NCBI GenBank assembly: GCA_031425315.1
Contig: JANPJC010000283.1
Location: 10,108 to 74,107, forward strand
Length of the DNA: 64,000 nucleotides
Reading direction: 5' to 3'
Source: Chitinophagales bacterium
GTDB taxonomy: Bacteria > Bacteroidota > Bacteroidia > Chitinophagales > Chitinophagaceae
Under the pieces are notes generated by a model. That model searched no databases. It was not told the origin of the DNA and worked only from the letters and a program-made list of their open reading frames with translations. Both the position numbers and the translations under genes were made by a program. The stretch's first letter is position 1. Each line of letters begins with the position of its first letter. Shown in pieces: positions 1,320-47,384 of this stretch.

Positions 1320-1830
1320 AGGGAGAAGGGCGAAGTGAGAAGTAGTGAGCAGTAAGCAGTGAGCAGTGAGCAGCTAAATACATTTGGAGGTGCGATCACA
1401 AAAATAAAATTTAATAATCACAAGTGGGGCTGCCCGGTTACATTAACCGGGCAGTTTTATTATATGATATTTCTATTTTTAGCACATGAAAAAGTCTTTA
1501 GATAGAAGTCATAAATTAGGCTGTTCATCTCCGTTAAACTCAAAACCTCTGCTAAACTCCGTGGCCTATTGGAAGTCTTTAGTCGCGAGTCATAAGTCAT
1601 AAGTACTCACGGCATTCAATTTGAAAACCGTTTTTGCCCACGGAGTTGAGCGGAGAAGTTGAGTTGAGCCGAGATATCAAACACTTTTGATATTGCTGAC
1701 TGGATATAATTCGATAGTTCGGCTGTTCATCTCCGTTAAACTCAAACCTCTGCTAAACTCCGTGGCCTATTGAAAGTCATTAGTCGCGAGTCAGAAGTCA
1801 CTAGTACAACCCAAAAAACGATTGAATCCA
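1320..1830. repeat. composite repeat locus: heptamer head directly after the stop codon + two ~205-bp direct copies of a CTCCGTTAAACTC...CCGTGGCC hairpin unit
   Basis: AGGGAGA AGGGCGA AGTGAGA AGTAGTG AGCAGTA AGCAGTG AGCAGTG AGCAGC at 1320-1373. Units at ~1512-1620 and ~1717-1805 share GGCTGTTCATCTCCGTTAAACTCAAA(A)CCTCTGCTAAACTCCGTGGCCTATTG(G/A)AAGTC(T/A)TTAGTCGCGAGTCA. Confidence 0.8.
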
Positions 1831-2825: not shown

Positions 2826-3340
2826 TCAAACGTGATACTGTTTTCCCGAACCTTTCCGTCCTTTCCGACTTCCCGGCTATGTATTAGGTTAGGTGAATGA
2901 CATCAAGGGCTTTTTTTGCCGGTGAGGCGGGGAGAACGGAAACGAATACACGGGAATAGTTGCATACAAAATTCCATCTTAATCATGTTTGAAATTTTCC
3001 CGAAACTTGCCGTTCTTTCCGTCTTCCCGGCTATGTGTTGTGAAATTGATACTGGATGATATTCAACCGCAGTAGAAGGTAAGCCGGAAAACGCGGGAAT
3101 GATGAACCGGAAATAGATAATTGCATTTATTTCCCGAACCTTGCCGTCCTTTTCGTTTTCCCGGCTATGTATAGTGAAATTGATACTGGATGATATTCAA
3201 CTGCTGTAGCCGGGAGCCGGAAAATGCGGGAATGAAGAAATGAAATTCGTTTATTGCTTGTATTTTTTCCCGAACCTTGCCGTCCTTTTCGTCTTCCCGG
3301 CTATGTATAGTGAAATTGATACTGGATGATGCATTTGAAA
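2826..3340. repeat. tandem array of about four ~133-bp units (TTCCCGAACCTTGCCGTCC...CTTCCCGGCTATGTATAGTGAAATTGATACTGGATGAT...)
   Basis: Direct repeats with CCCGGCTATGT at ~2868, 3027, 3160 and 3293. Each unit has an internal imperfect inverted repeat (TTCCCG...CCCGGCTA versus TAGCCGGGAGCCGGAAAA(T/C)GCGGGAA). Confidence 0.85.
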
Positions 3341-14934: not shown

Positions 14935-15618
14935 ATGAATATGAAACATGTAATAGTGAGCGGCGCCACTGGGAACCTTGGACAGGCAGTCGTGCAAAAA
15001 TTTTTAACAGAAGGATTTGCTGTTAGTGGTACGGCCCGGTCCCCAAATAAAGAACAAAAACACTCACACAATAATTACAATTTATTTGATGTTGATCTTT
15101 CAGATGAAACTGCGGCAGAAGATGTTGTGAATTCAGTGATTAAAAAAAACGGACGCATTGACATTGCAGTATTAACTGCAGGTGGCTTTGCTATGGGAAG
15201 TTTAAAAGACAGCAAATCATCTGCAATATTACAGCAGTACAAATTGAATTTCGAAACAGCTTACCACCTGGCGCGTCCCATATTTATGCAGATGTTGAAA
15301 CAGGGTTATGGAAGAATATTTTTCATCGGTAGCATGGCCGGGCTCGATGCCTCAAAATCAAAAGGCATGACGGGTTACGGTTTATCAAAATCACTGGTGA
15401 TACGGCTTAGTGAATTGATCAATGAAGAAGCGCGGGGTACTGATATTGTTAGTTCGGTAGTGATACCAGGAACAATTGATACACCACAGAACAGGGCTGC
15501 CATGCCGGATGCGGACTTTTCTAAATGGGTGAATGCTGATGATATTGCAAACATTATTTACCTGCACACCACGCCGGAAATGAGTACGAATAGAGAGACG
15601 ATGATTAAGATTTATTGA
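14935..15618 (+). CDS. SDR family short-chain dehydrogenase/reductase
   Basis: N-terminal VSGATGNLG Rossmann motif. Catalytic Y-x3-K (YGLSK). Confidence 0.85.
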   Translation: MNMKHVIVSGATGNLGQAVVQKFLTEGFAVSGTARSPNKEQKHSHNNYNLFDVDLSDETAAEDVVNSVIKKNGRIDIAVLTAGGFAMGSLKDSKSSAILQQYKLNFETAYHLARPIFMQMLKQGYGRIFFIGSMAGLDASKSKGMTGYGLSKSLVIRLSELINEEARGTDIVSSVVIPGTIDTPQNRAAMPDADFSKWVNADDIANIIYLHTTPEMSTNRETMIKIY

Positions 15619-15619
15619 G

Positions 15620-16680
15620 GCACTATGCAATAGGCAATAGCGAACAGCCAATACAGATTTTAGGTATGACAAATACTTTCCATTTCAGTTGAATATTTTG
15701 TGATAGAGTTTCTCCGTGAATCTCCTGTATATCATCTCCTGCTGTTTCTCCGTGTAACAAAACTATTTTGGAGACAAAGTTAACGCCGGATTTCGAGTTG
15801 AACGAAGAAGGGCTGTTTCTCAGCTTACCTCATAACCTCCGTTAAACTCCGTGGCCGAAAAATATCATCATTTGGGATCAACAGATTTAAAAGCCTGGAC
15901 ACAATACAGGCTTTAGGTAAAACAACACTCCGGACATTCGGCTTTCATTTGGCCACAGAGATAAGCGGAGATTTTGAGTTGAACGGAGAGTCGTTGTATT
16001 GGCTGTTCCTCAGCTTACCTAATAACCTCCGTTAAACTCCGTGGCCGAAAAAATATCATCATTTGGGATCAGCAAATTTAAAAGCCTGGACACAATACAG
16101 GTTTTAGGTATAACAACACTCCGGACATTCGACTTTCATTTGGCCGCAGAGTTAAGCGGGGATTTTGAGTTGAACGGAGAGTCGCTGTATTGGCTGTTCC
16201 TCAGCTCACCTCAAAACCTCCGTTAAACTCCGTGGCCGAAAAAAGTATTTGGGTAAATAAATTCAAAAGTTCGGAAACAGAGGGCCACTAAGAAACAAAG
16301 GACACAAAGGAACAGCCAATACAGGTTTTATGTTTTAGGTATTAGGTTCGCCCAATACTTTCCATTTCAATTGAATATTTTGTGAAAGAGTTTCTCCGTG
16401 AATCTCCTGTATTTCATCTCCTGCTGTTTCTCCGTGTAACAAACCATTTTGGAGATACAGTTAAGCCTGGATTTCGAGTTGGACGAAGAAGGGCTGTTCC
16501 TCAGCTCACCTCAAAACCTCCGTTAAACTCCGTGGCCGAAAAAAGTATTTGGTTAAGTAAATTCAAAAGTTCGGAAACAGAGGGCCACTAAGAAACAAAG
16601 GACACAAAGGCACAGCCACTAGGGGTTTTATGTTTTATGTTTTAGTTAAATACATGGCTACCAATTATCCTATTGACTTA
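15620..16680. repeat. ~1-kb composite intergenic repeat locus (heptamer head + GAACAGCCAATACAG core + CTCCGTGAATCTCCTGTAT and CTCCGTTAAACTCCGTGGCC hairpin modules; internal duplications)
   Basis: Core at 15642-15656 and 16310-16325. Reverse cores at ~15999 and ~16185. About 190-bp direct duplicates at 15838-16025 and 16026-16212. 15660-15870 is repeated at 16330-16550. Confidence 0.85.
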
Positions 16681-21289: not shown

Positions 21290-21520
21290 CGATTTCTTTA
21301 TTTTCCGGCAAGATTTTTTCCCGGGTGAAATTTTTTTTCGGGCCGCGTAGGTGTCAGACACCTCGAAGCGTTTTGTTTGATCAAATCCCGCGAAGGTGTC
21401 TGACACCTAAGCGGCCCGAAGTTTTCGATTTTCTTTTTTACGGCAAAGGTTTTTTTCCGCTTTGAAAATGTTTTTTTCCCAATAGTTTTGTGCATTACCG
21501 CCGGCAAACCATATCTGCCG
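21290..21520. repeat. inverted-repeat element with two copies of the palindrome GGTGTCAGACACC around a TTGATCAA loop, flanked by T-rich direct repeats
   Basis: Left arm CGGGCCGCGTAGGTGTCAGACACCTCGAAGCG and right arm CGCGAAGGTGTCTGACACCTAAGCGGCCCG are near-perfect reverse complements. Flanks TTCGATTTCTTTATTTTCCGGCAAGATTTTTTCC and TTCGATTTTCTTTTTTACGGCAAAGGTTTTTTTCC. Confidence 0.85.
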
Positions 21521-24912: not shown

Positions 24913-25310
24913 TACTCCACTTACAAATAATCGGTAGTCTCTCCATATTGCTGGCCCTTTCACATGTAGGGTTTCCAGGTTATTTTAAATGGAAAGATGG
25001 TCTGAAAGATTTGTCATTGATCAACAGGCAGATGATGTTGGTGCATACATTTTTTATCGCACTGACAGTTTTCCTTACCGGGGTGCTAATGATATATAAT
25101 CCAGAAGATTTGCTCAATACCAGGATCGGCAACCAGGTGCTTTGGGGACTTGGAATCTTTTGGGGCATCAGGTTATTGGCGCAATTTTTCTTTTACAGTG
25201 CAGCACTCTGGAGAGGTAAGAAGTTCGAAACAGTAATTCATATTCTGTTTGCAATATTATGGCTGTATTTTACCGTGGCATTATTCTGGATTGCTGGAAC
25301 CACCTTGTAA
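24909..25310 (+). CDS. small membrane protein (start moved to ATG overlapping the upstream stop in an ATGA arrangement)
   Basis: ATG at 24909-24911 overlaps TGA 24910-24912 of the upstream gene. Four hydrophobic helices. Confidence 0.4.
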   Translation: MILHLQIIGSLSILLALSHVGFPGYFKWKDGLKDLSLINRQMMLVHTFFIALTVFLTGVLMIYNPEDLLNTRIGNQVLWGLGIFWGIRLLAQFFFYSAALWRGKKFETVIHILFAILWLYFTVALFWIAGTTL

Positions 25311-25835
25311 AGTGCGAAATACGAAGTGAGAAGTACGAAGTAAACAGCCCCGGACAGGTGGTTATGTTATTGTTTAATAAGAGTGAATGGGTGAATAGGG
25401 CAATATGATAATCGACAGCCGACGATTTCAACTAAAACTTAATCCATCTTCTTATAACTTTTTTCGGGCCACGGGGATGAGCGGAGAGTTTGAGATAAGC
25501 GGAGAACAGCCAGTGCATCAATACTCTGTTTAATTCAAAACCACTGTTTATCTATGTCGCCAAAGAAAATTAAAATAATTGCAAAAGTAAATAGCCTGCA
25601 AATATTGTATACTTTAAATATTTACTTACAACTTTAAAAATGTAACAAAGAAATTCTGTTACACGGAGAAACAGCAGAAGATAAAAGGCAAGAGATTCAC
25701 GGAGATTTCCTCTTCAGATAACAACCAGACTAAATGAACAACATCTTTATTAAATGTATAATTTAAAAGGTATAACTGTATTGGCTGTTCCCTGCTTACT
25801 GCTCACTACTTACTATTCACTAATCATCATTATCT
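25311..25835. repeat. complete composite repeat element with inverted heptamer+core termini
   Basis: Plus-oriented head AGTGCGAAATACGAAGTGAGAAGTACGAAGTAAACAGCC at 25311. Minus-oriented head (revcomp TAGTGAATAGTAAGTAGTGAGCAGTAAGCAGGGAACAGCCAATACAG) at 25775-25822. Internal GGCCACGGGGATGAGCGGAGAGTTTGAGATAAGCGGAG and TGTTACACGGAGAAACAGCAG...GATTCACGGAGA modules. Confidence 0.8.
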
Positions 25836-29739: not shown

Positions 29740-29830
29740 TTGATGTGCAGAGATACGAAAAAAGTGGGAAGGGGGAAGGGGGAAGTGCGAAGTATGAAGT
29801 GCGAAGTAATTAACAGCAAAAGGCAGAAGT
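29740..29830. repeat. orphan heptamer-array head (GTGGGAA GGGGGAA GGGGGAA GTGCGAA GTATGAA GTGCGAA GTAATTA ACAGC)
   Basis: Tandem 7-mers ending in ACAGC, related to the heads of the repeat family. Lies 10 bp upstream of the GH5 start codon. Confidence 0.6.
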
Positions 29831-35023: not shown

Positions 35024-35480
35024 AATAGCAGACGGAAGACGGTAGACGGTAGGCAGTAGAGAACAGCCAATACAAAGACGGTAGACGGTAGACGGTAGGC
35101 AGTAGAGAACAGCCAATACAGGTTTTACGTTATAAGTTATATGTTTAACACGCCTGTTAGTCTTCGGCGATCAACTGTAGCGGCAAGGCATGCCTTGCCG
35201 CTACAAGAACAGCCAATACAGGTTTTACTTTATAAGTTATATGTTTAACACGCCTGTTAGTCTTCGGCGTACAACAGTAGCGGCAAGACATGCCTTGCCG
35301 CTACAAGAGCAGCCAATACTGGTTTTACGTTATAAGTTATATGTTTAACACGCCTGTGAGTCTTCGGAGTACAACAGTAGCGGCAAGGCATGCCTTGCCG
35401 CTACAAGAACAGCCAATACACACTGAAGTACTTGAATGATATCAAATCGTACTGTTGTATTAACGTAAAACGTAAAACTT
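35024..35480. repeat. repeat locus: two heptamer heads (GACGGTA)n + core, then three tandem ~121-bp units each carrying a perfect hairpin GTAGCGGCAAGGCATGCCTTGCCGCTAC
   Basis: AACAGCCAATACA at 35062, 35109, 35207, ~35327 and 35407. Unit = core + TTTTACGTTATAAGTTATATGTTTAACACGCCTGTTAGTCTTCGGCG + hairpin. Confidence 0.85.
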
Positions 35481-35542
35481 ACAACGTATAACTGTATCGC
35501 CTGTGCCTTTTGCCTATCTTTATTCCACAACCAATTTCCCAA

Positions 35543-41143: not shown

Positions 41144-41502
41144 GCTGTTTTACTTTTCGTTGAATGCTGAAATTTAATCAATCGGATTACTACATCCTGA
41201 CATTTCTGCTTTTGAATGTGTATCCTGTTTACGCCTTAAAGATTGCGATTTAAATTGAAATTTTGAATGAATGGCCATTCCAATTCAACAACATTTCAAA
41301 AAAAATCAATTTTCATTGATAAACTGAAAGGGGGAATATGCAACATGCAGGTAATTAATATGCATCAGCTCAACCCCTTCATTTATGTTTACGGATCATC
41401 GTTCCCAGCAGTAAACCTACAGCGAAGCAAGTAAAATCAGTACCTTTATTAACTCAATATATTGTACTATATTAACATAGTAAATTTAAAACGATGTACA
41501 AA

Positions 41503-42350
41503 TGAGACCGGTTCTCCGCCAGGTTACTTCCAAACCGGAATATTCCTTTACTGTTAGAAAAGACGAAGGGGAGAACACGCTTAACAACTGGCACTATCAT
41601 CCGGAGATTGAAATACTCAATAAAAAAGAAGTGTGGGCAACTGGCTGATTGGAGATCATATCGGTCATTTTACAAGTAGAGATATAGTAATGATCGGCCC
41701 AAATCTTCCCCATTGTTTCCGGCTTGAATATGATTATATCATCAAAAAGAAGAGAAAGCCGGAGAATCCTTTTTTGTGTGAAGTTTTTACCTGAAACATA
41801 GGTCATGTTTTTCTTAGCCTGCCTGAAAACAAATCGATAAGGGAACTCAAGACGAAATGTGTAAGGGTGCTGCAAACTAAAGGAAAAGTGAAAAATGAGA
41901 TTGGTACCCTCTTTGAAAAAATGGCATCATGCTTTCCAGCCAAAAGGATCACTTACCTGCTTTCGGTTTTCGCTGACATAGCAGATAGCCGGGAATTTCA
42001 GTCACTTTTTTCTCCGGGATTTATTTTAACGACAGCTGATACTGACAAAGAAAGAATCAGATTAATTTTTGAATATTCAATCACCCGTTATGCAGAAAGA
42101 ATTACAATCGAAGAACTTGCTACTCTGTTCAGCATGATGCGACAATCTTTTATCAGGTATTTTAAAAGAAAAACCAATAAAACTTACGTCCGGTTTTTAA
42201 TGGAAGTGAATTGAACGTGCATGTAAATTATTGTTTGAAATGAAAAAACGTTGCTGAAATCAGCTATGCATGCGGTTATAATAATATCTCACATTTCAAT
42301 CATCAATTTAAAAATATTACTGGGAAAAAACATTGAAATAAAAGAGGGAT
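41503..42350 (+). pseudogene. AraC-family transcriptional regulator disrupted by multiple stops/frameshifts
   Basis: Frame 1 gives MRPVLRQVTSKPEYSFTVRKDEGENTLNNWHYHPEIEILNKKEVWATG* (AraC cupin). A second frame gives GDHIGHFTSRDIVMIGPNLPHCF. ORF 41867-42214 carries the AraC HTH start (ITIEELATLFSMMRQSFIRYFKRKTNKTYVRF), followed after a stop by the second HTH helix region. Confidence 0.6.
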
Positions 42351-43280
42351 TATATTAGTGAGCAGTAAGCAGTAAGTAGTGAGCAGTAAGCAGTGAGCAG
42401 TAAGTAGTGAGCAGTGAGCAGTAAGCAGTGAGCAGCCGATGGCTGTTATTTCTCCGTTAAACTCAAATGCTCCGTTCAACTCCGTGGCCAAAAAAAATTT
42501 ACTAACAAGAAAGTTTTAGTTTTCTAATGCACGCCACAGAGATAAGCTGAGGTTTTGAGATAAGCGGAGAAAAAATGGCGGTACAAATTATGGCAAATAT
42601 GATTGCTTAATAGAATTATTAGTTGCTAACCTCCGTTAATCTCAATTGCTCCGTTCAACTCCGTGGCCCAAAAAATCTACCATCAAGAAAATTTAAGTTT
42701 TCTAAGGCAAGCCACAGAGATAAGCTGAGGTTTTGAGATAAGCGGAGAAAAAAAGGCAATTCATTTTAGGACTAATATGAAAGCTTGATAGATTTGTTTA
42801 CTGTTATGCTCCGTTAAACTCAAATGCTCCGTTCAACTCCGTGGCCAAAAAATCTAACATCCAGAAAATTTAAGTTTTCTAAGGCAAGCCACAGAGATAA
42901 GCAGCGGTTTTGAGAGGAACGGAGAAAAAATGGCGATATAAATTATGGCAAATATGATTGCTTAATAGAATTATTCGTTGTTATCCTCCGTTAATCTCAA
43001 TTGCTCCGCTCAACTCCGTGGCCCAAAAAATCTACTATCACGAAAATTTAAGTTTTCTAATGCAGGCTACTGCTGTATTGGTTACAATTCTCTTGTGCCC
43101 AAGTGTTTTTTGCTACACGGAGGAACAGCCGGAGCTTAAATACAGGAGATTCACGGAGATAACTCAAGAATATTATATAGCCCGTTATCAGCTACTGTCT
43201 ACCTTCTACCAACTTTTGTATCGTCTGTTGCCTACTTTCTGTTTTCTACCGTCTACCTACTCTTGTATTGGCTGCTAACG
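42351..43280. repeat. complete composite repeat element: plus head (AGTGAGC/AGTAAGC)x13, four tandem ~175-185-bp hairpin units, minus head (GGTAGAC-type heptamers + core)
   Basis: Units start at ~42454, 42640, 42812 and 42985 with CTCCGTTAA(A/T)CTCAA(A/T)TGCTCCGTTCAACTCCGTGGCC paired to GCCACAGAGATAAGCTGAGGTTTTGAGATAAGCGGAG. CTCCGTGAATCTCCTGTAT module (reverse) at ~43110-43150. Reverse core CTTGTATTGGCTGC at 43262-43275. Confidence 0.85.
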
Positions 43281-43753
43281 TAAAACTGAATTGGCTCATC
43301 GAATACCCGGGCAGTTGAATCGAAATTGGGATACCTAGCCATAGGCATCAGCTGCCCTTCACAAAACAACTGATCCATTTTTAATCCTTTGCCAATCAGA
43401 GCCTGCTTTACATGGTCTTTGAAATTTTTCCCCTGAACTGCCAATGGAATCGCTCCGGAAATAATAACATTTTCATTCTTATATGCGCTAATTGCTAATT
43501 TCCGGCCGTCCAAATCCGCAGGAGCTATTTGTACAGTTTTGATTAACGGATAATTTCCCTCCCGAAAAAAAATAACCGCTGAATCACTTTTTACGCCAGC
43601 TACTTTTTGTAGGGCAGCCTCTAAAGTTTTCAGCGGTTTGCTGATAGTACCTGCGGCATTATCATTTCCACTTTCGGCCACAAATATGGTTTGTGAAAAA
43701 CAAATCATCACAGGCTGAAAAACGCAGAGGATCAATATTTTAATGAAATTCAT
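43253..43753 (-). CDS. N-terminal fragment of a right-handed beta-helix (pectate-lyase-like) secreted protein; C-terminus and stop provided by the repeat element
   Basis: Signal peptide + AESGNDNAAGTISKPLKTLEAALQK beta-helix N-cap, but only 166 aa. The last residues SSQYKSR* are encoded by the revcomp of the repeat core GCAGCCAATACAAGAGTAGGTAG. Confidence 0.5.
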   Translation of the reverse strand: MNFIKILILCVFQPVMICFSQTIFVAESGNDNAAGTISKPLKTLEAALQKVAGVKSDSAVIFFREGNYPLIKTVQIAPADLDGRKLAISAYKNENVIISGAIPLAVQGKNFKDHVKQALIGKGLKMDQLFCEGQLMPMARYPNFDSTARVFDEPIQFYVSSQYKSR

Positions 43754-43815
43754 TTTAACGTATTCTATTGCTTAAAAAGCAATGAATATAGTAAATGAAG
43801 TGATTAAAAATTCCG

Positions 43816-45255
43816 CTATTCCATCCTGTTCTTTTTGCTCCAGCTTTTATGCTTGGCTCCATCCATTTTTACAATCTTTGGTGTAAACCGTCCAACCACA
43901 TCTACTAATACCTGCTGACTTTTCATTACTGATTCAATATCCTTGTAAGCGAAAGGCGATTCATCCAACCCTCCTCCCATCAATTTCACTCCATGCATTG
44001 CCAGGATATCTTTCATCGCTTTTTCAGTAATTGACTGCAATGCCGCAGTTCTGCTCATTTTGCGCCCTGCACCATGTGAGGCTGATGATAGGGAAGACGG
44101 TTCTCCTTTTCCTTTTACAATAAAACCATCAGCCGTCATAGACCCAGGAATAATCCCTAAAACATTTTTTTCCGCAGGTGTCGCGCCCTTTCTGTGCACT
44201 ATCACTTCCCTGCCTTCAAACATTTCTTTCCAGGCAAAATTGTGATGGTTTTCCACCCGCACGATGGGTTGTTCTCCAAGCTGCAGAGCAATTTTATCAT
44301 GAATGATATGATGACATGCCGATGCATAGTCGCCTGCAAGTTTCATTGCAATCCAGTACTGTGCGCCTTCTTCTTCATCCAGGTTCAGCCATGCAAGGTT
44401 GGCAGCCTCGGATGGTAATCGCCTTTTTTCTTTTGCGATCTTAGTAAAATGATTGGCGATTGTTGCACCTAATCCACGTGAACCTGAATGCGACAACAAG
44501 CCCATATATTCACCAACAGGCAGTCCCAAAACATCATCCTGTTCTTTAATGTCTACGACACCAAATTCAACGAAATGATTTCCGGAGCCGGAGCTTCCTA
44601 ACTGCCGCCAAGCTTTATCCTGCAGTCCTTTGAGTAAAGGCACATCATTAAAAGCCGGATCTGTCAACACATCATGATCAGCAGGTTTCACAAATTGTGA
44701 ACCGTTTCCAAACAATGTGGCTTCATTCAGTTCACGAACAAAATACTGCTCACGCTTTTGCAATTCGCCTGGAGAAAGACTGAATACACTTAAACACATA
44801 CGGCATCCAATATCCACTCCCACGCCATATGGTATCACAGCATTTTCAGTAGCCAGCACCCCGCCGATTGGTAAACCATAACCGCTATGGGCATCCGGCA
44901 TTAATGCACCAGCCACCGCAACAGGTATTTTAGAAGCAGTTTGCATTTGCATTAAGGCCCCTTCCTCAATATGTTCAGCTCCAAATATCGAAAACGAAAT
45001 TCCCTGCTGATTTAAATCAATTGTTTCCCATGACGTTGGAGGTGGCGGCATAAAATAGTGAGCAATCAGTTGCAGCTTTTCATATTCCATATACTCAGAA
45101 GGTGCAGCCTGTATACGTTTCAGCAATTCAAGAACTTCTTCTTTATTGCTATGTTTAAACTGCTGCTGCATCACCTGCATGGCCACACTAATAACGGGCC
45201 CTTCAGGATATCCTATTGCCCGCAATTCTTTCCCGCTTAATTTTAATTTTGACAT
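43816..45255 (-). CDS. rtcB: RNA-splicing ligase RtcB
   Basis: 479 aa. Metal-binding and GAGR-type motifs (SASHGAGRKMS), HNFAWKE, NHAGVD-like core. Confidence 0.9.
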   Translation of the reverse strand: MSKLKLSGKELRAIGYPEGPVISVAMQVMQQQFKHSNKEEVLELLKRIQAAPSEYMEYEKLQLIAHYFMPPPPTSWETIDLNQQGISFSIFGAEHIEEGALMQMQTASKIPVAVAGALMPDAHSGYGLPIGGVLATENAVIPYGVGVDIGCRMCLSVFSLSPGELQKREQYFVRELNEATLFGNGSQFVKPADHDVLTDPAFNDVPLLKGLQDKAWRQLGSSGSGNHFVEFGVVDIKEQDDVLGLPVGEYMGLLSHSGSRGLGATIANHFTKIAKEKRRLPSEAANLAWLNLDEEEGAQYWIAMKLAGDYASACHHIIHDKIALQLGEQPIVRVENHHNFAWKEMFEGREVIVHRKGATPAEKNVLGIIPGSMTADGFIVKGKGEPSSLSSASHGAGRKMSRTAALQSITEKAMKDILAMHGVKLMGGGLDESPFAYKDIESVMKSQQVLVDVVGRFTPKIVKMDGAKHKSWSKKNRME

Positions 45256-45601
45256 CTTTCTTTTTTTTGCGCAATAACTTCAGAGCAATAATTATTCCTT
45301 TCATTATACCTCTTTTGTTATCGCAATTCATTTAAGCAATTCAATTAATAGATAAAATTTCTATGTCCGTGATTCAATGTCTTTGAAATAAGTATAATCC
45401 ACCTACTCAGCGGTGCTTTTTTGAACCACATAGACACATAATTAAATACAAAAGAATTTTCTATGTGCCCTCTATGCCTATGTGGCGGATGTTCCCTTGG
45501 GAGACTAATCTGCAAAAACAGTAAGTCTTGATTCGATCCGTTCCTTATTTCAACGACATTGATCCATGATTCACAAAACTTTAATTTTCAATTTTACACA
45601 T

Positions 45602-46702: not shown

Positions 46703-47012
46703 ATCTGTTTGTTTTGGTTTTTTGTTATAAATGATTACTATAAGCCTTCAATTATCACGGGACATTACCTGTTTAAAAATTCGGTTACATCATTTCAACT
46801 TTCCCAAATGGCCGGGAAAACCAAAATCATTTAACATCCATCGTCAACATGGTGAGTCGCAGGTAAATCACTGAATGTAACCGGCAGCTTTTTTGCAAAC
46901 CACCATTACCGGCTTACAGTAACCATTTATGGATCGCCATTTGAGAAGTGGCGGACTTCGTTAGGTCTACAGCCTGAGTGTAGTGCTTTCGCCGCTAAGC
47001 TATTCCGCCATA

Positions 47013-47062
47013 AGCGGAAGCAGGAGTCGAACCTGCGTTTTGTTGCTCTACCATTAAGCTAC
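47013..47062 (-). other. tRNA-like remnant: D-arm-like GGTAGCTTAATGGTAGAGC + T-arm GCAGGTTCGACTCCTGC + TTCCGCT, but no anticodon arm
   Basis: Seen on the reverse complement. I could not fold a full cloverleaf (no matching 5' acceptor strand, only ~8 nt between D- and T-arms). Confidence 0.3.
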
Positions 47063-47065
47063 CGT

Positions 47066-47093
47066 TGTTACACGGGGAGGATTCGAACCTCCA
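47066..47093 (-). other. tRNA-like remnant: T-arm GGAGGTTCGAATCCTCC + 3' acceptor-like CCGTGTA
   Basis: Canonical T-stem/loop on the reverse strand, with no foldable upstream D/anticodon arms. Confidence 0.3.
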
Positions 47094-47384
47094 ACACACA
47101 TGCATAACCGATTCTTGCAATAGCATACAATTCGTTATTACGATTGCACTGTACTGGATACATCCAGCCACCCGGATTGCAAGTCATCTGGTTAAGACTA
47201 CTTCCCTTCCGGAAAGTCTCTTTCTGATATTTCTATCCAGTTAAATTATCTAAAGAACTCATTTTCAATTGATGATACAAAACTATCCGACCACTGTGCA
47301 ACCATTTTGCACAGTAAAAAGAAAAATGAATTATTTTTAAAAAAAGTTAGCATCAGAGGAAATCCGGGAGATTACAATTCAGTT

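Follow-up and report, generated by a model that had tools for sequence, protein, structure and literature searches.

A tandem array of inverted 38-nt modules between two decayed genes in a Chitinophagaceae genome

The array described here lies in a 64-kb stretch of a single genome, that of a Chitinophagales bacterium (contig JANPJC010000283.1). This stretch was analyzed at its full length of 64,000 nucleotides and is referred to as the window. It is Bacteroidota DNA of ∼40% G+C that encodes proteins sorted by the type IX secretion system (T9SS), and its RtcB and fucose permease proteins were closest to those of Chitinophagaceae (Terrimonas, Flavisolibacter, and Ferruginibacter). The array occupies a 915-bp gap between two convergent, decayed genes (Table 1). 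On the left is an AraC-family pseudogene, whose ortholog in a Ferruginibacter metagenome-assembled genome (MAG) is intact (295 aa), adjoins the fucose permease gene, and has no repeat array downstream. On the right is the remnant of a Pel9A-like beta-helix gene, whose reading frame ends inside a repeat motif; a related protein in the closest available genome has 781 aa (47% identity, E=4e-38). From left to right, the gap holds a tract of tandem heptamers, the junction-motif variant CAGCCGATG followed by GGCTGTT, the array, a degenerate junction motif, and then, all on the minus strand, an interspersed repeat termed the B module, a degenerate heptamer tract, and a copy of the junction motif. 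The left heptamer tract starts 20 nt after the stop of the AraC pseudogene, and each of its units carries TGA or TAA, resulting in stops in all three plus-strand frames. The variant CAGCCGATG also follows the heptamer tract of a relative, and GGCTGTT precedes left arms at other loci.

The array spans 42444 to 43064 and was detected by Tandem Repeats Finder (TRF) with a period of 178 bp, 3.5 copies, 83% matches, and a score of 895. Its left arms carry the motif CTCCGTTAA(A/T)CTCAA(A/T)TGCTCCG(T/C)TCAACTCCGTGGCC and start at 42452, 42631, 42809, and 42986, a spacing of 179, 178, and 177 bp, and the 44-nt block that includes the left arm is 91 to 100% identical among the four units. The motifs far exceeded chance, with 16 matches where 2.4 were expected and 12 where 0 were expected. 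By unit alignment and arm profile search, units 1 to 3 were each resolved into a 38-nt left arm, an A-rich spacer of 41 to 43 nt, a right arm of 38 nt that is the same module inverted, and an AT-rich linker of ∼60 nt. Units 1 and 2 carry the right-arm sequence GCCACAGAGATAAGCTGAGGTTTTGAGATAAGCGGAG without change, and unit 3 has five changes in it, while unit 4 consists of a left arm and spacer only and breaks off at TGTATTGG (43074 to 43081). The array therefore holds three hairpins and one solo arm, with the arms in the order left (L), right (R), L R L R L and with alternating spacers of ∼42 and ∼60 nt. A previous sequence-only reading of this DNA had described four hairpin units of ∼175 to 185 bp; its tandem array was recovered, with a period of 177 to 179 bp, but only three hairpins, unit 4 being without a right arm. 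Three of its four unit starts (42454, 42812, and 42985) fall within 3 nt of those found here, and the other, 42640, is ∼9 nt off. The A-rich spacer that it noted agreed with the alignment, and its estimate that ∼70% of stem positions pair was close to the 26 to 27 Watson-Crick plus 1 to 2 G.U pairs counted per 38 positions (∼74 to 76%).

The same reading had regarded the open reading frames (ORFs) called inside the array, at 42303 to 42491 and 42958 to 43278, as artifacts. Both ORFs are present, and when translations of repeat-internal ORFs and modules were searched as a chimeric arm and module query against 5.8 billion proteins, no match was obtained at E<=1, in agreement with that view. For annotation, the two ORFs are not genes, and the region is repeat DNA between two pseudogenes. 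Short-read assemblies break within this array: an independent short-read Logan contig is identical to 42946 to 45438 and ends inside the array, in unit 3.

The entity that recurs in the window is the arm. A BLAST search with the whole unit recovered only arms at other loci, and a hidden Markov model (HMM) of the arm, run with nhmmer over the 64 kb, identified 18 strong copies (E<=2e-9) at six sites plus two weak ones, one of them at a seventh site, all of which are intergenic. Between loci, the arms are 71 to 84% identical, whereas the spacers (42, 94, and 70 nt) could not be aligned. Six of the 18 strong copies are solo, with no partner arm. Each arm is composed of four direct subrepeats of ∼10 nt with a CTC(C)G core, spaced by 10, 8, and 10 nt and ending in GTGGCC, and TRF also reported a period of 10 within the arms at 15.8 kb. 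A lone arm, with a G+C content of 49 to 53%, reaches no more than -2.1 to -4.5 kcal/mol when folded and forms no arm-spanning hairpin. Since the whole-unit search recovered arms only, the spacers are unalignable, and a lone arm does not fold, the conserved unit is the 38-nt module, and a hairpin arises wherever two modules face each other. The hairpin elements measure ∼120 bp at 42 kb, ∼147 bp at 1.5 kb, and ∼172 bp at 15.8 kb. The segments that had been listed as the same unit type (1512 to 1805, 15838 to 16240, and 16500 to 16550) do contain the arm but share nothing else with the array, both the spacers (70 and 94 nt) and the periods (∼201 and ∼191 bp) being unrelated to those at 42 kb. Each of the three arrays that contain arms finishes with a left arm and part of its spacer; the order is L R L in the array at 1.5 kb, L R L R L in that at 15.8 kb, and L R L R L R L in the one at 42 kb.

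Comparison of the units with one another gave some indication of how the array was formed. Identity between copies is 89% at an offset of 355 bp and 76% at one of 178 bp, and this greater likeness at the longer offset indicates a probable duplication of a dimer on top of an older monomer duplication. Similarity among the units is mosaic. The left arm of unit 1 is identical to that of unit 3, and that of unit 2 resembles that of unit 4; the spacers of units 2, 3, and 4 are alike; the right arms of units 1 and 2 are identical; and the linker of unit 1 resembles that of unit 3. In the right arm of unit 3, the five changes are clustered and turn the outer subrepeat into the CTCCGTTC type. Such a mosaic is, to judge from the sequence, the signature of gene conversion among units. 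Differences between units number 3 to 11 in 42 to 43 nt of the spacers, which form the loops, and 3 to 16 in 53 nt of the linkers. The arms of units 1 and 2 show differences at 2 of 75 positions, compared with 25 of 96 in the spacer and linker (Fisher p=1.3e-5). As the arms are conserved together with their mismatches while the spacers drift, the comparison points to arms that have been homogenized or constrained at the level of sequence, and not by selection on RNA pairing. A random-like pattern of mutations between copies, which the sequence-only reading had named as a sign against structured RNAs, was not what was seen. The paralogous segment at 16290 to 16640 matches 15620 to 16325 minus exactly 2 x 191 bp of the 15.8-kb array, and the gap falls between a right-arm remnant and a left arm, the pattern expected from expansion or contraction of an array by recombination or slippage between direct copies.

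Folded as RNA, single units reached -33 to -39 kcal/mol on the plus strand (z -3.3 to -5.7 versus shuffles) and -40 to -44 kcal/mol on the minus strand (z -4.3 to -4.6), and the whole array reached -172 kcal/mol (z -5.9) and -176 kcal/mol (z -8.1), respectively. Both strands thus fold far better than shuffles. In the whole-array fold, the pairing register is ambiguous, with R3 pairing with L4 across the linker. One unit folded as single-stranded DNA, plus strand, reached -14.7 kcal/mol (z -2.1, DNA parameters), and a cruciform or single-stranded-DNA hairpin was rejected on the basis of this marginal stability.

The check for covariation proposed with the sequence-only reading gave no support for conserved pairing. 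The arms of six complete hairpins (three from this array, two from 15.8 kb, and one from 1.5 kb) were compared over 38 pairs, or 228 cells, of which 77.2% pair. When the 3' partners were shuffled among copies, the mean was 79.4%, and 500/500 shuffles equaled or exceeded the observed value; the covariation score was 0.037 against a shuffled mean of 0.058, with 485/500 shuffles at least as high. Double-sided change was observed in only 1 of the 38 pairs, in a single cell (1/228). Columns 19/63 and 27/55 do not pair in any copy, and column 33/49 has C opposite A in 5/6 copies. The changes previously described as compensatory-looking were found to be one-sided: TAAA to TAAT turns an A.A mismatch into a pair with the partner unchanged, and GATAAGC to GAGGAAC breaks a pair. 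The number of G.U pairs was 13 for the plus-strand RNA and 17 for the minus-strand RNA, with no strand preference.

Signals of independent transcription were likewise at or below chance. Sigma-70-like promoter matches numbered 4 against 5.2 expected, and intrinsic terminator-like sites 0 against 2.1 expected, with no U-tract after the stems on either strand. A full Bacteroidota-type promoter (-33 TTTG/-7 TAnnTTTG) was found neither in nor near the array, the lone TAnnTTTG of the region, at 42789, having no TTTG within 40 nt upstream. A scan of the window with Rfam at gathering thresholds returned nothing in the array region, and a permissive scan returned only subthreshold matches to plant miRNA-precursor and IMES-5 models, at 16 to 21 bits against cutoffs of 85 to 230. 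With no covariation, no strand bias, no promoter or terminator signal above chance, no Rfam family, and 6 of 18 arms solo, the proposal of an array of structured RNAs was not upheld.

Outside the window, the arm family was not recovered. The exact degenerate arm patterns gave 18 single chance matches in GTDB representative genomes, most of them in high-GC genomes (one that was inspected, L010, looked coding), six unrelated chance matches in JGI metagenomes, and none in viral contigs. None of the outside matches had a partner arm or the rest of the arm, the arm HMM matching only the part fixed by the pattern, and blastn against plasmid and phage collections gave no match. In the nearest available genome (85% RtcB identity and ∼75 to 80% nucleotide identity across syntenic genes), a heptamer tract and then GGAACAGCCGATG follow the orthologous DUF1003 gene, and no arm, B, or full junction modules were present in 21 kb. 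The Ferruginibacter MAG locus likewise has a heptamer tract at the stop codon and no arms. Heptamer tracts hence appear to be a family-level feature and the hairpin modules to be specific to the source lineage. Modules account for the greater length, in the window, of two orthologous intergenic regions: ScdA-HK (∼295 bp versus 57 bp in the relative) and DUF1003-PfkB, where the Usp gene of the relative is missing and the gap is occupied by modules. In the literature, the motif strings matched only unrelated primer sequences, and keyword searches on Bacteroidota intergenic repeats brought up no description of this family; the arm family is a previously unrecorded repeat family in Chitinophagaceae.

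At ScdA-HK, the intergenic region (49304 to 49598) is ∼240 bp longer than that of the relative and contains a degenerate arm (49435 to 49468) and a degenerate reverse B-like segment (∼49388 to 49410). This insertion looks like an old, decayed copy of the same arm/module family. Around the array itself, at 41267 to 42336 and 43253 to 43753, an AraC pseudogene lies beside the fucose permease gene and the Pel9A-like gene is cut to 166 aa, and a sigma/FecR/SusC/SusD/fucosidase block located downstream of rtcB in the closest genome is missing from the window, as is the Usp gene. The gene loss coincides with repeat-rich gaps. The long-period tandem arrays, in which this genome is unusually rich, are associated with gene truncation and loss relative to the related genome, which makes the arm family a likely driver of local genome plasticity.

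We read the array, with moderate confidence, as a lineage-specific, noncoding interspersed repeat of the kind represented by miniature inverted-repeat transposable elements (MITEs) and bacterial interspersed mosaic elements (BIMEs), which was amplified in tandem by recombination and whose hairpin results incidentally from the inversion of its arms. It has the look of selfish or structural repeat DNA that has been amplified locally, and its setting is typical of such repeats: all four hairpin-bearing loci lie between convergent genes, both neighbors are decayed here, and the orthologous intergenic regions of a relative are shorter and without modules. The reading is carried by the interspersion of the arm with varying partners and spacers, amplification and conversion at the DNA level, the lack of RNA-type signals, the restriction to one lineage, and the link to gene decay. 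The earlier suggestion of stacked MITE cores comes close to this reading, in that small, noncoding inverted-repeat elements of an interspersed family, amplified in tandem, are indeed present. Their arms form 26 to 29 Watson-Crick pairs per 38, the core is short and noncoding, the element is smaller than ∼400 bp, and the family is multicopy (18 arms at six sites), with the ScdA-HK and DUF1003-PfkB sites empty in a relative that is distant (∼75 to 80%). They are not formally assigned to the MITEs because no target-site duplication (TSD) was seen beside the hairpins and no cognate transposase among the scanned ORFs of the 64 kb. We class the array with the bacterial interspersed palindromic repeats, a known class of which it is a new member, and assign it to no named family.

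Several observations weigh against this interpretation. A TSD was not found at the ends of any complete hairpin, and no transposase, REP-associated tyrosine transposase (RAYT, a Y1 transposase; REP, repetitive extragenic palindromic sequence), or recombinase gene was found among the scanned ORFs of >=150 aa; mobility is therefore no more than an inference, and the family may have spread either by a trans-acting transposase or recombinase or by recombination at the shared junction motif. The power of the covariation test is low, as the six hairpins represent only three independent families and 19 of the 38 pairs are invariant. The conserved arm positions include mismatched ones, which could reflect selection for a function in protein or RNA recognition instead of gene conversion. 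Lastly, every left arm points in the same direction as the upstream gene and its heptamer tract, which an RNA-level role in the 3' untranslated region (3'-UTR) would also explain.

Under the favored interpretation, the array would have begun as an inverted pair, a palindromic MITE/BIME-like element of ∼120 bp, located just downstream of the heptamer tract that follows the stop of the gene. Unequal recombination or replication slippage between direct copies would have converted the monomer to a dimer, and the dimer of ∼355 bp would then have been duplicated, with gene conversion keeping the arms alike and the spacers drifting. Inverted arms would by themselves produce the imperfect hairpin of ∼38 bp. 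If transcription reads through from either convergent neighbor and crosses the array, the transcripts would fold on either strand, and an action like that of REP/BIME may be possible.

This last point leads to the alternative that survives best, although it seems unlikely as the main explanation, namely, that the hairpins act in cis as 3'-UTR elements and are kept as useful. Read-through transcripts of the convergent genes would fold, which would either bar the way to 3'->5' exonucleases or bring convergent transcription to a stop or insulate it. Such roles have been reported for the REP/BIME elements of Escherichia coli and the SPRITE elements of pneumococci, and for REP/BIME, PMC3184786 summarizes both the part played in mRNA stability and the preference for convergent genes. 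All four loci with complete hairpins sit between convergent genes, downstream of stop codons, and the modules are co-oriented with the upstream gene. Folded as RNA, either strand gives strong hairpins (z -3.3 to -8.1), the arms are conserved relative to the spacers, and no intrinsic terminator was predicted between either flanking gene and the array, making read-through plausible. However, both flanking genes are pseudogenes or fragments here, leaving little to stabilize; pairing is not kept by compensatory change; solo arms are common; no U-tract follows the stems on either strand; and the orthologous gene ends of relatives manage without the modules.

The junction motif AACAGCCAATACA bears on a second alternative. 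Thirteen nucleotides of this motif are invariant in 10 aligned copies, and its flanks differ, comprising a heptamer tract, an arm module, a GTTTTACGTT module, or a GC hairpin. It marks most module boundaries, the point at which unit 4 breaks off, and the end of the truncated Pel9A-like ORF. At 52.5 kb, a 57-nt block with a solo arm is bounded by 10-bp direct repeats of GCCAATACAG, which is part of the junction motif, and the block is absent from four paralogous junctions. This is the sole insertion-like footprint. In three copies, the junction motif directly abuts an arm, and the block is therefore explained equally well by recombination between composite repeats at the shared motif.

It is conceivable, though rather improbable, that the arms are recognition sites in double-stranded DNA, with the CTC(C)G cores 8 to 10 bp apart binding multiple molecules of a single protein (for example, a transposase, site-specific recombinase, or nucleoid protein) and with AACAGCCAATACA as a joining or integration site. 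Conservation of sequence and not of pairing, mismatched positions included, would fit, as would the subrepeat period of ∼10 nt, the invariance of the junction motif between different modules, the 10-bp direct duplication around the solo arm, and the break-off of both unit 4 and the Pel9A-like ORF at the motif. Against it, no candidate protein gene was found among the scanned ORFs of >=150 aa, the single duplication has the equally good explanation given above, and the subrepeat spacing of 10, 8, and 10 nt is not strictly in helical phase. A more elaborate proposal, to which we attach little credence, is that the arm, the B module, and the 100-bp unit at 35 kb are cargo of an undescribed system that targets gene 3' ends. 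The modules would integrate site-specifically and in fixed orientation at the AACAGCCAATACA that ends the stop-codon heptamer tracts, duplicating ∼10 bp as seen with GCCAATACAG at 52.5 kb. The recombinase or transposase responsible would recognize the phased CTCCG subrepeats, and tandem hairpin arrays would arise incidentally as integration and recombination recurred at that site. If the arms were functional, as 3'-UTR hairpins or as junction-motif-specific recombination sites, they would be of wider interest.

That each unit is an independent gene with its own promoter, specifying a small-RNA or antisense family, is very improbable: the stable predicted hairpins and the better conservation of arms than of spacers would fit, but the promoter, terminator, covariation, and strand results given above do not, the best Rfam matches are plant miRNA-precursor models at 17 to 21 bits, the spacers are wholly different between loci, and many arms are solo. 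Three other candidates were rejected. A CsrB-like protein-sponge RNA would not have its GGAG motifs inside stems, as here, but in loops. An invertible promoter ("inverton") is not consistent with arms that are only ∼70% complementary, with enclosed segments of 42 to 60 nt that lack a Bacteroidota -33/-7 promoter, or with the absence of a recombinase gene nearby. A CRISPR array is not consistent with inter-arm segments that repeat from unit to unit (70 to 97% identical) or with successive arms that alternate in orientation.

In layout, the array is closest to the BIME-2 clusters of E. coli. In BIME-2, as known from the work of Gilson and Bachellier, REPs of ∼35 to 40 nt alternate in orientation, separated by two spacers that also alternate, and such pairs form tandem repeats. 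The E. coli REP is a G+C-rich palindrome with a GTAG/CGTC tag. Common to both systems are an alternating module of this size, two alternating spacers, and a tandem pair in variable number; both are intergenic, often at gene 3' ends, and in both neighboring modules pair as a long hairpin. The clusters in alternating orientation with characteristic spacers that define a BIME are thus present. However, the spacers here (∼42 and ∼60 nt) are much longer, and there is no sequence similarity. Unlike REP, the 38-nt arm is not self-complementary (-2.1 to -4.5 kcal/mol) and is built of direct subrepeats of ∼10 nt, so that it is not a self-folding G+C-rich palindrome of 20 to 40 bp. The properties of REP and BIME are summarized in PMC3184786, and a conserved GTAG or CGTC tetranucleotide at one end is among the criteria for REP (PMC3733652). 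No such tag was present in the arm alignment, the arms beginning with CTCCG and ending with GTGGCC, and no RAYT gene was found among the scanned ORFs of >=150 aa in the window.

Similarities to bacterial MITEs were also apparent. Like Correia of Neisseria and Nezha of cyanobacteria (PMC3184786), the elements are small (120 to 170 bp), multicopy, and intergenic, have no ORF, carry inverted repeats around a core, form long RNA stem-loops, and occur in one lineage only, being absent from the orthologous sites of relatives. Unlike these, they showed no TSD at the hairpins and have no known insertion sequence with matching ends, their arms also occur singly, and they are mosaic and amplified in tandem together with the linker. 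BOX of Streptococcus pneumoniae (PMC3184786) is comparable in being modular, MITE-like, and intergenic, with a module reiterated a variable number of times and outer modules that are partly complementary and form a stem-loop. In BOX, however, boxB is reiterated between complementary boxA and boxC, whereas here the complementary arms and both spacers are reiterated, and BOX, from a different phylum, has no sequence similarity to the arm family. Within the Bacteroidota, BrickBuilt of Porphyromonas gingivalis (PMC4596501) is also a species-restricted, strictly intergenic, MITE-like element containing a tandem array. Its unit is 23 nt without spacers, located between leader and tail subunits with small inverted ends, whereas the period here is 178 bp and each unit is an inverted pair; again, no sequence similarity was found.

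More curious than the array itself are its surroundings, namely, the stop-codon heptamer tracts, the invariant junction motif, and the occurrence of five long-period intergenic tandem arrays (periods of 100 to 201 bp) in 64 kb. The same grammar recurs at the other repeat loci, in the order stop codon, heptamer tract, AACAGCCAATACA, and modules, all oriented with the upstream gene. The heptamer tracts (AGTGAGC, AAGTGAG/AAGTGCG, AGACGGT, AGGCAAT, and others) start no more than a few nucleotides from stop codons and are oriented with the gene. Each unit that was checked (AGTGAGC/AGTAAGC, AGACGGT, AGGCAAT, and AAGTGAG) carries or creates a stop triplet, and because 7 is not a multiple of 3, stops occur in all three sense frames within three units. 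The antisense strand of the AGTGAGC tract is open, and an ORF reads through it. Different heptamers occupy the orthologous sites in relatives, and the stop-codon tracts look like a Chitinophagaceae-wide feature. They resemble the TAACTGA repeats discussed in PMC4679880, differing in that the tracts here are at gene 3' ends. The coordinates of these features are given in Table 1 together with those of the arms.

Table 1. Coordinates (window positions) of the array, its flanks, and related repeats
Feature	Position	Strand	Remarks
AraC-family pseudogene, left flank	41502-42336	+	>=2 frameshifts, 2 in-frame stops
Heptamer tract	42357-42435	+	AGTGAGC/AGTAAGC, 11.3 copies; TRF period 7, score 109
Left junction	42436-42451	+	(GAGCA)GCCGATGGCTGTTATTT, the junction-motif variant CAGCCGATG, then GGCTGTT
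Left arm, unit 1	42452-42489	+	38 nt: CTCCGTTAAA / CTCAAATG / CTCCGTTCAA / CTCCGTGGCC; nhmmer E=5e-13
Right arm, unit 1	42533-42570	-	Reverse-oriented arm module; E=1.5e-11
Left arm, unit 2	42631-42668	+	Motif and arm profile search
Right arm, unit 2	42711-42748	-	Identical to right arm of unit 1
Left arm, unit 3	42809-42846	+	Identical to left arm of unit 1
Right arm, unit 3	42888-42925	-	5 clustered changes; outer subrepeat converted to CTCCGTTC type
Left arm, unit 4	42986-43023	+	Solo, no inverted partner
Spacer of unit 4, array end	43024-43064	+	A-rich
A-rich spacers, units 1-3	42490-42532, 42669-42710, 42847-42887		
AT-rich linkers	42571-42630, 42749-42808, 42926-42985		
Degenerate junction motif	43074-43081	-	TGTATTGG, reverse complement of CCAATACA; break-off point of unit 4
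B module	43105-43160	-	CTCCGTGAATCTCCTGTAT...CTGTTCCTCCGTGTAGCAAA; interspersed repeat, oriented with the minus-strand gene
Degenerate heptamer tract	43178-43262	-	AGACGGT/AGAAGGT type, downstream of truncated Pel9A-like ORF
Junction motif (J)	43264-43274	-	CAGCCAATACA; within last codons of the 166-aa ORF
Pel9A-like beta-helix fragment, right flank	43253-43753	-	166 aa, N-terminal; PF22842
Arms at 1.5 kb	L 1528-1566 (+), R 1637-1674 (-), L 1730-1767 (+)		Period ∼201 bp; 70-nt spacer, unrelated
Arms at 15.8 kb (15818-16237)	15818(+), 15951(-), 16009(+), 16142(-), 16200(+)		Period 191 bp; 94-nt spacer, unrelated
Solo arm at 16.5 kb	16500-16537	+	Arm profile search
Solo arm at 25.4 kb	25467-25505	-	Weak arm-like match nearby, 25524-25554
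Arms at 42 kb	As above		The seven arms of this array
Weak arm at 49.4 kb	49435-49468		Seventh site
Solo arm at 52.5 kb	52566-52604	+	Between two direct copies of GCCAATACAG; block absent from four paralogous J junctions
AACAGCCAATACA copies	166, 15645, 15995(-), 16186(-), 16313, 25777(-), 35064, 35110, 35210, 35410, 43264(-), 52550		
One-mismatch variant of AACAGCCAATACA	35310		
Heptamer tracts	1319-1373, 15618-15640, 25310-25342, 25795-25822(-), 29762-29807, 35030-35106, 42357-42435, 43178-43262(-), 52523-52546		
Heptamer tracts in loci of relatives	L026 5908-5981; L028 3453-3496		
B modules	315-333, 15712-15761, 16394-16443, 25655-25704(-), 43105-43160(-), 52721-52770		CTCCGTGAATCTCCTGTAT..CTGTTTCTCCGTGTAACAAA

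Other repeats of the window were also noted. The B module is always oriented with the upstream gene and has a CTCCGTG core in common with the arms. At 35106 to 35420, there are 3.2 tandem copies of a 100-bp unit, in each of which the junction motif comes first and a perfect GC-rich hairpin, GTAGCGGCAAGGCATGCCTTGCCGCTAC, lies within; a degenerate junction motif in inverted orientation, together with GTTTTACGTT, closes the locus (35462 to 35510). At 2995 to 3330, there are 2.5 tandem copies of a 134-bp unit with loosely inverted TTTCCCG/CGGGAA-rich ends, the array ending, as the others do, on a "left" segment. A common hairpin architecture was considered for this locus and rejected, the unit folding no better than shuffles as DNA (z = -0.2).

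Two further elements were observed that are separate from these repeats. Between an SPFH gene and a WYL-domain regulator, ∼1.7 kb from rtcB, a match to YrlA (Y RNA-like) was obtained on the minus strand at 47023 to 47112; in a scan of 700 nt, it scored 40.3 bits (E=2e-7), short of the 69 required for gathering. Beside it, at 46949 to 47009 on the same strand, is a borderline tRNA-like match of 29.3 bits that was not called by ARAGORN. The segment from 46949 to 47112 could belong to an RtcB repair locus, as a Y-RNA-like or tRNA-like element that has diverged. Finally, a perfect 15-bp palindrome, AGGTGTCAGACACCT, was found at ∼52850 to 52865, within a conserved segment of ∼100 nt upstream of a pfkB-family kinase gene. 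This segment is 93% identical to that of the relative (L026, 4865 to 4959), well above the 75 to 80% of the genes. The palindrome recurs as an inverted pair upstream of a PAP2 gene (two inverted copies within 21320 to 21440) and may be an operator or a small REP-like element.

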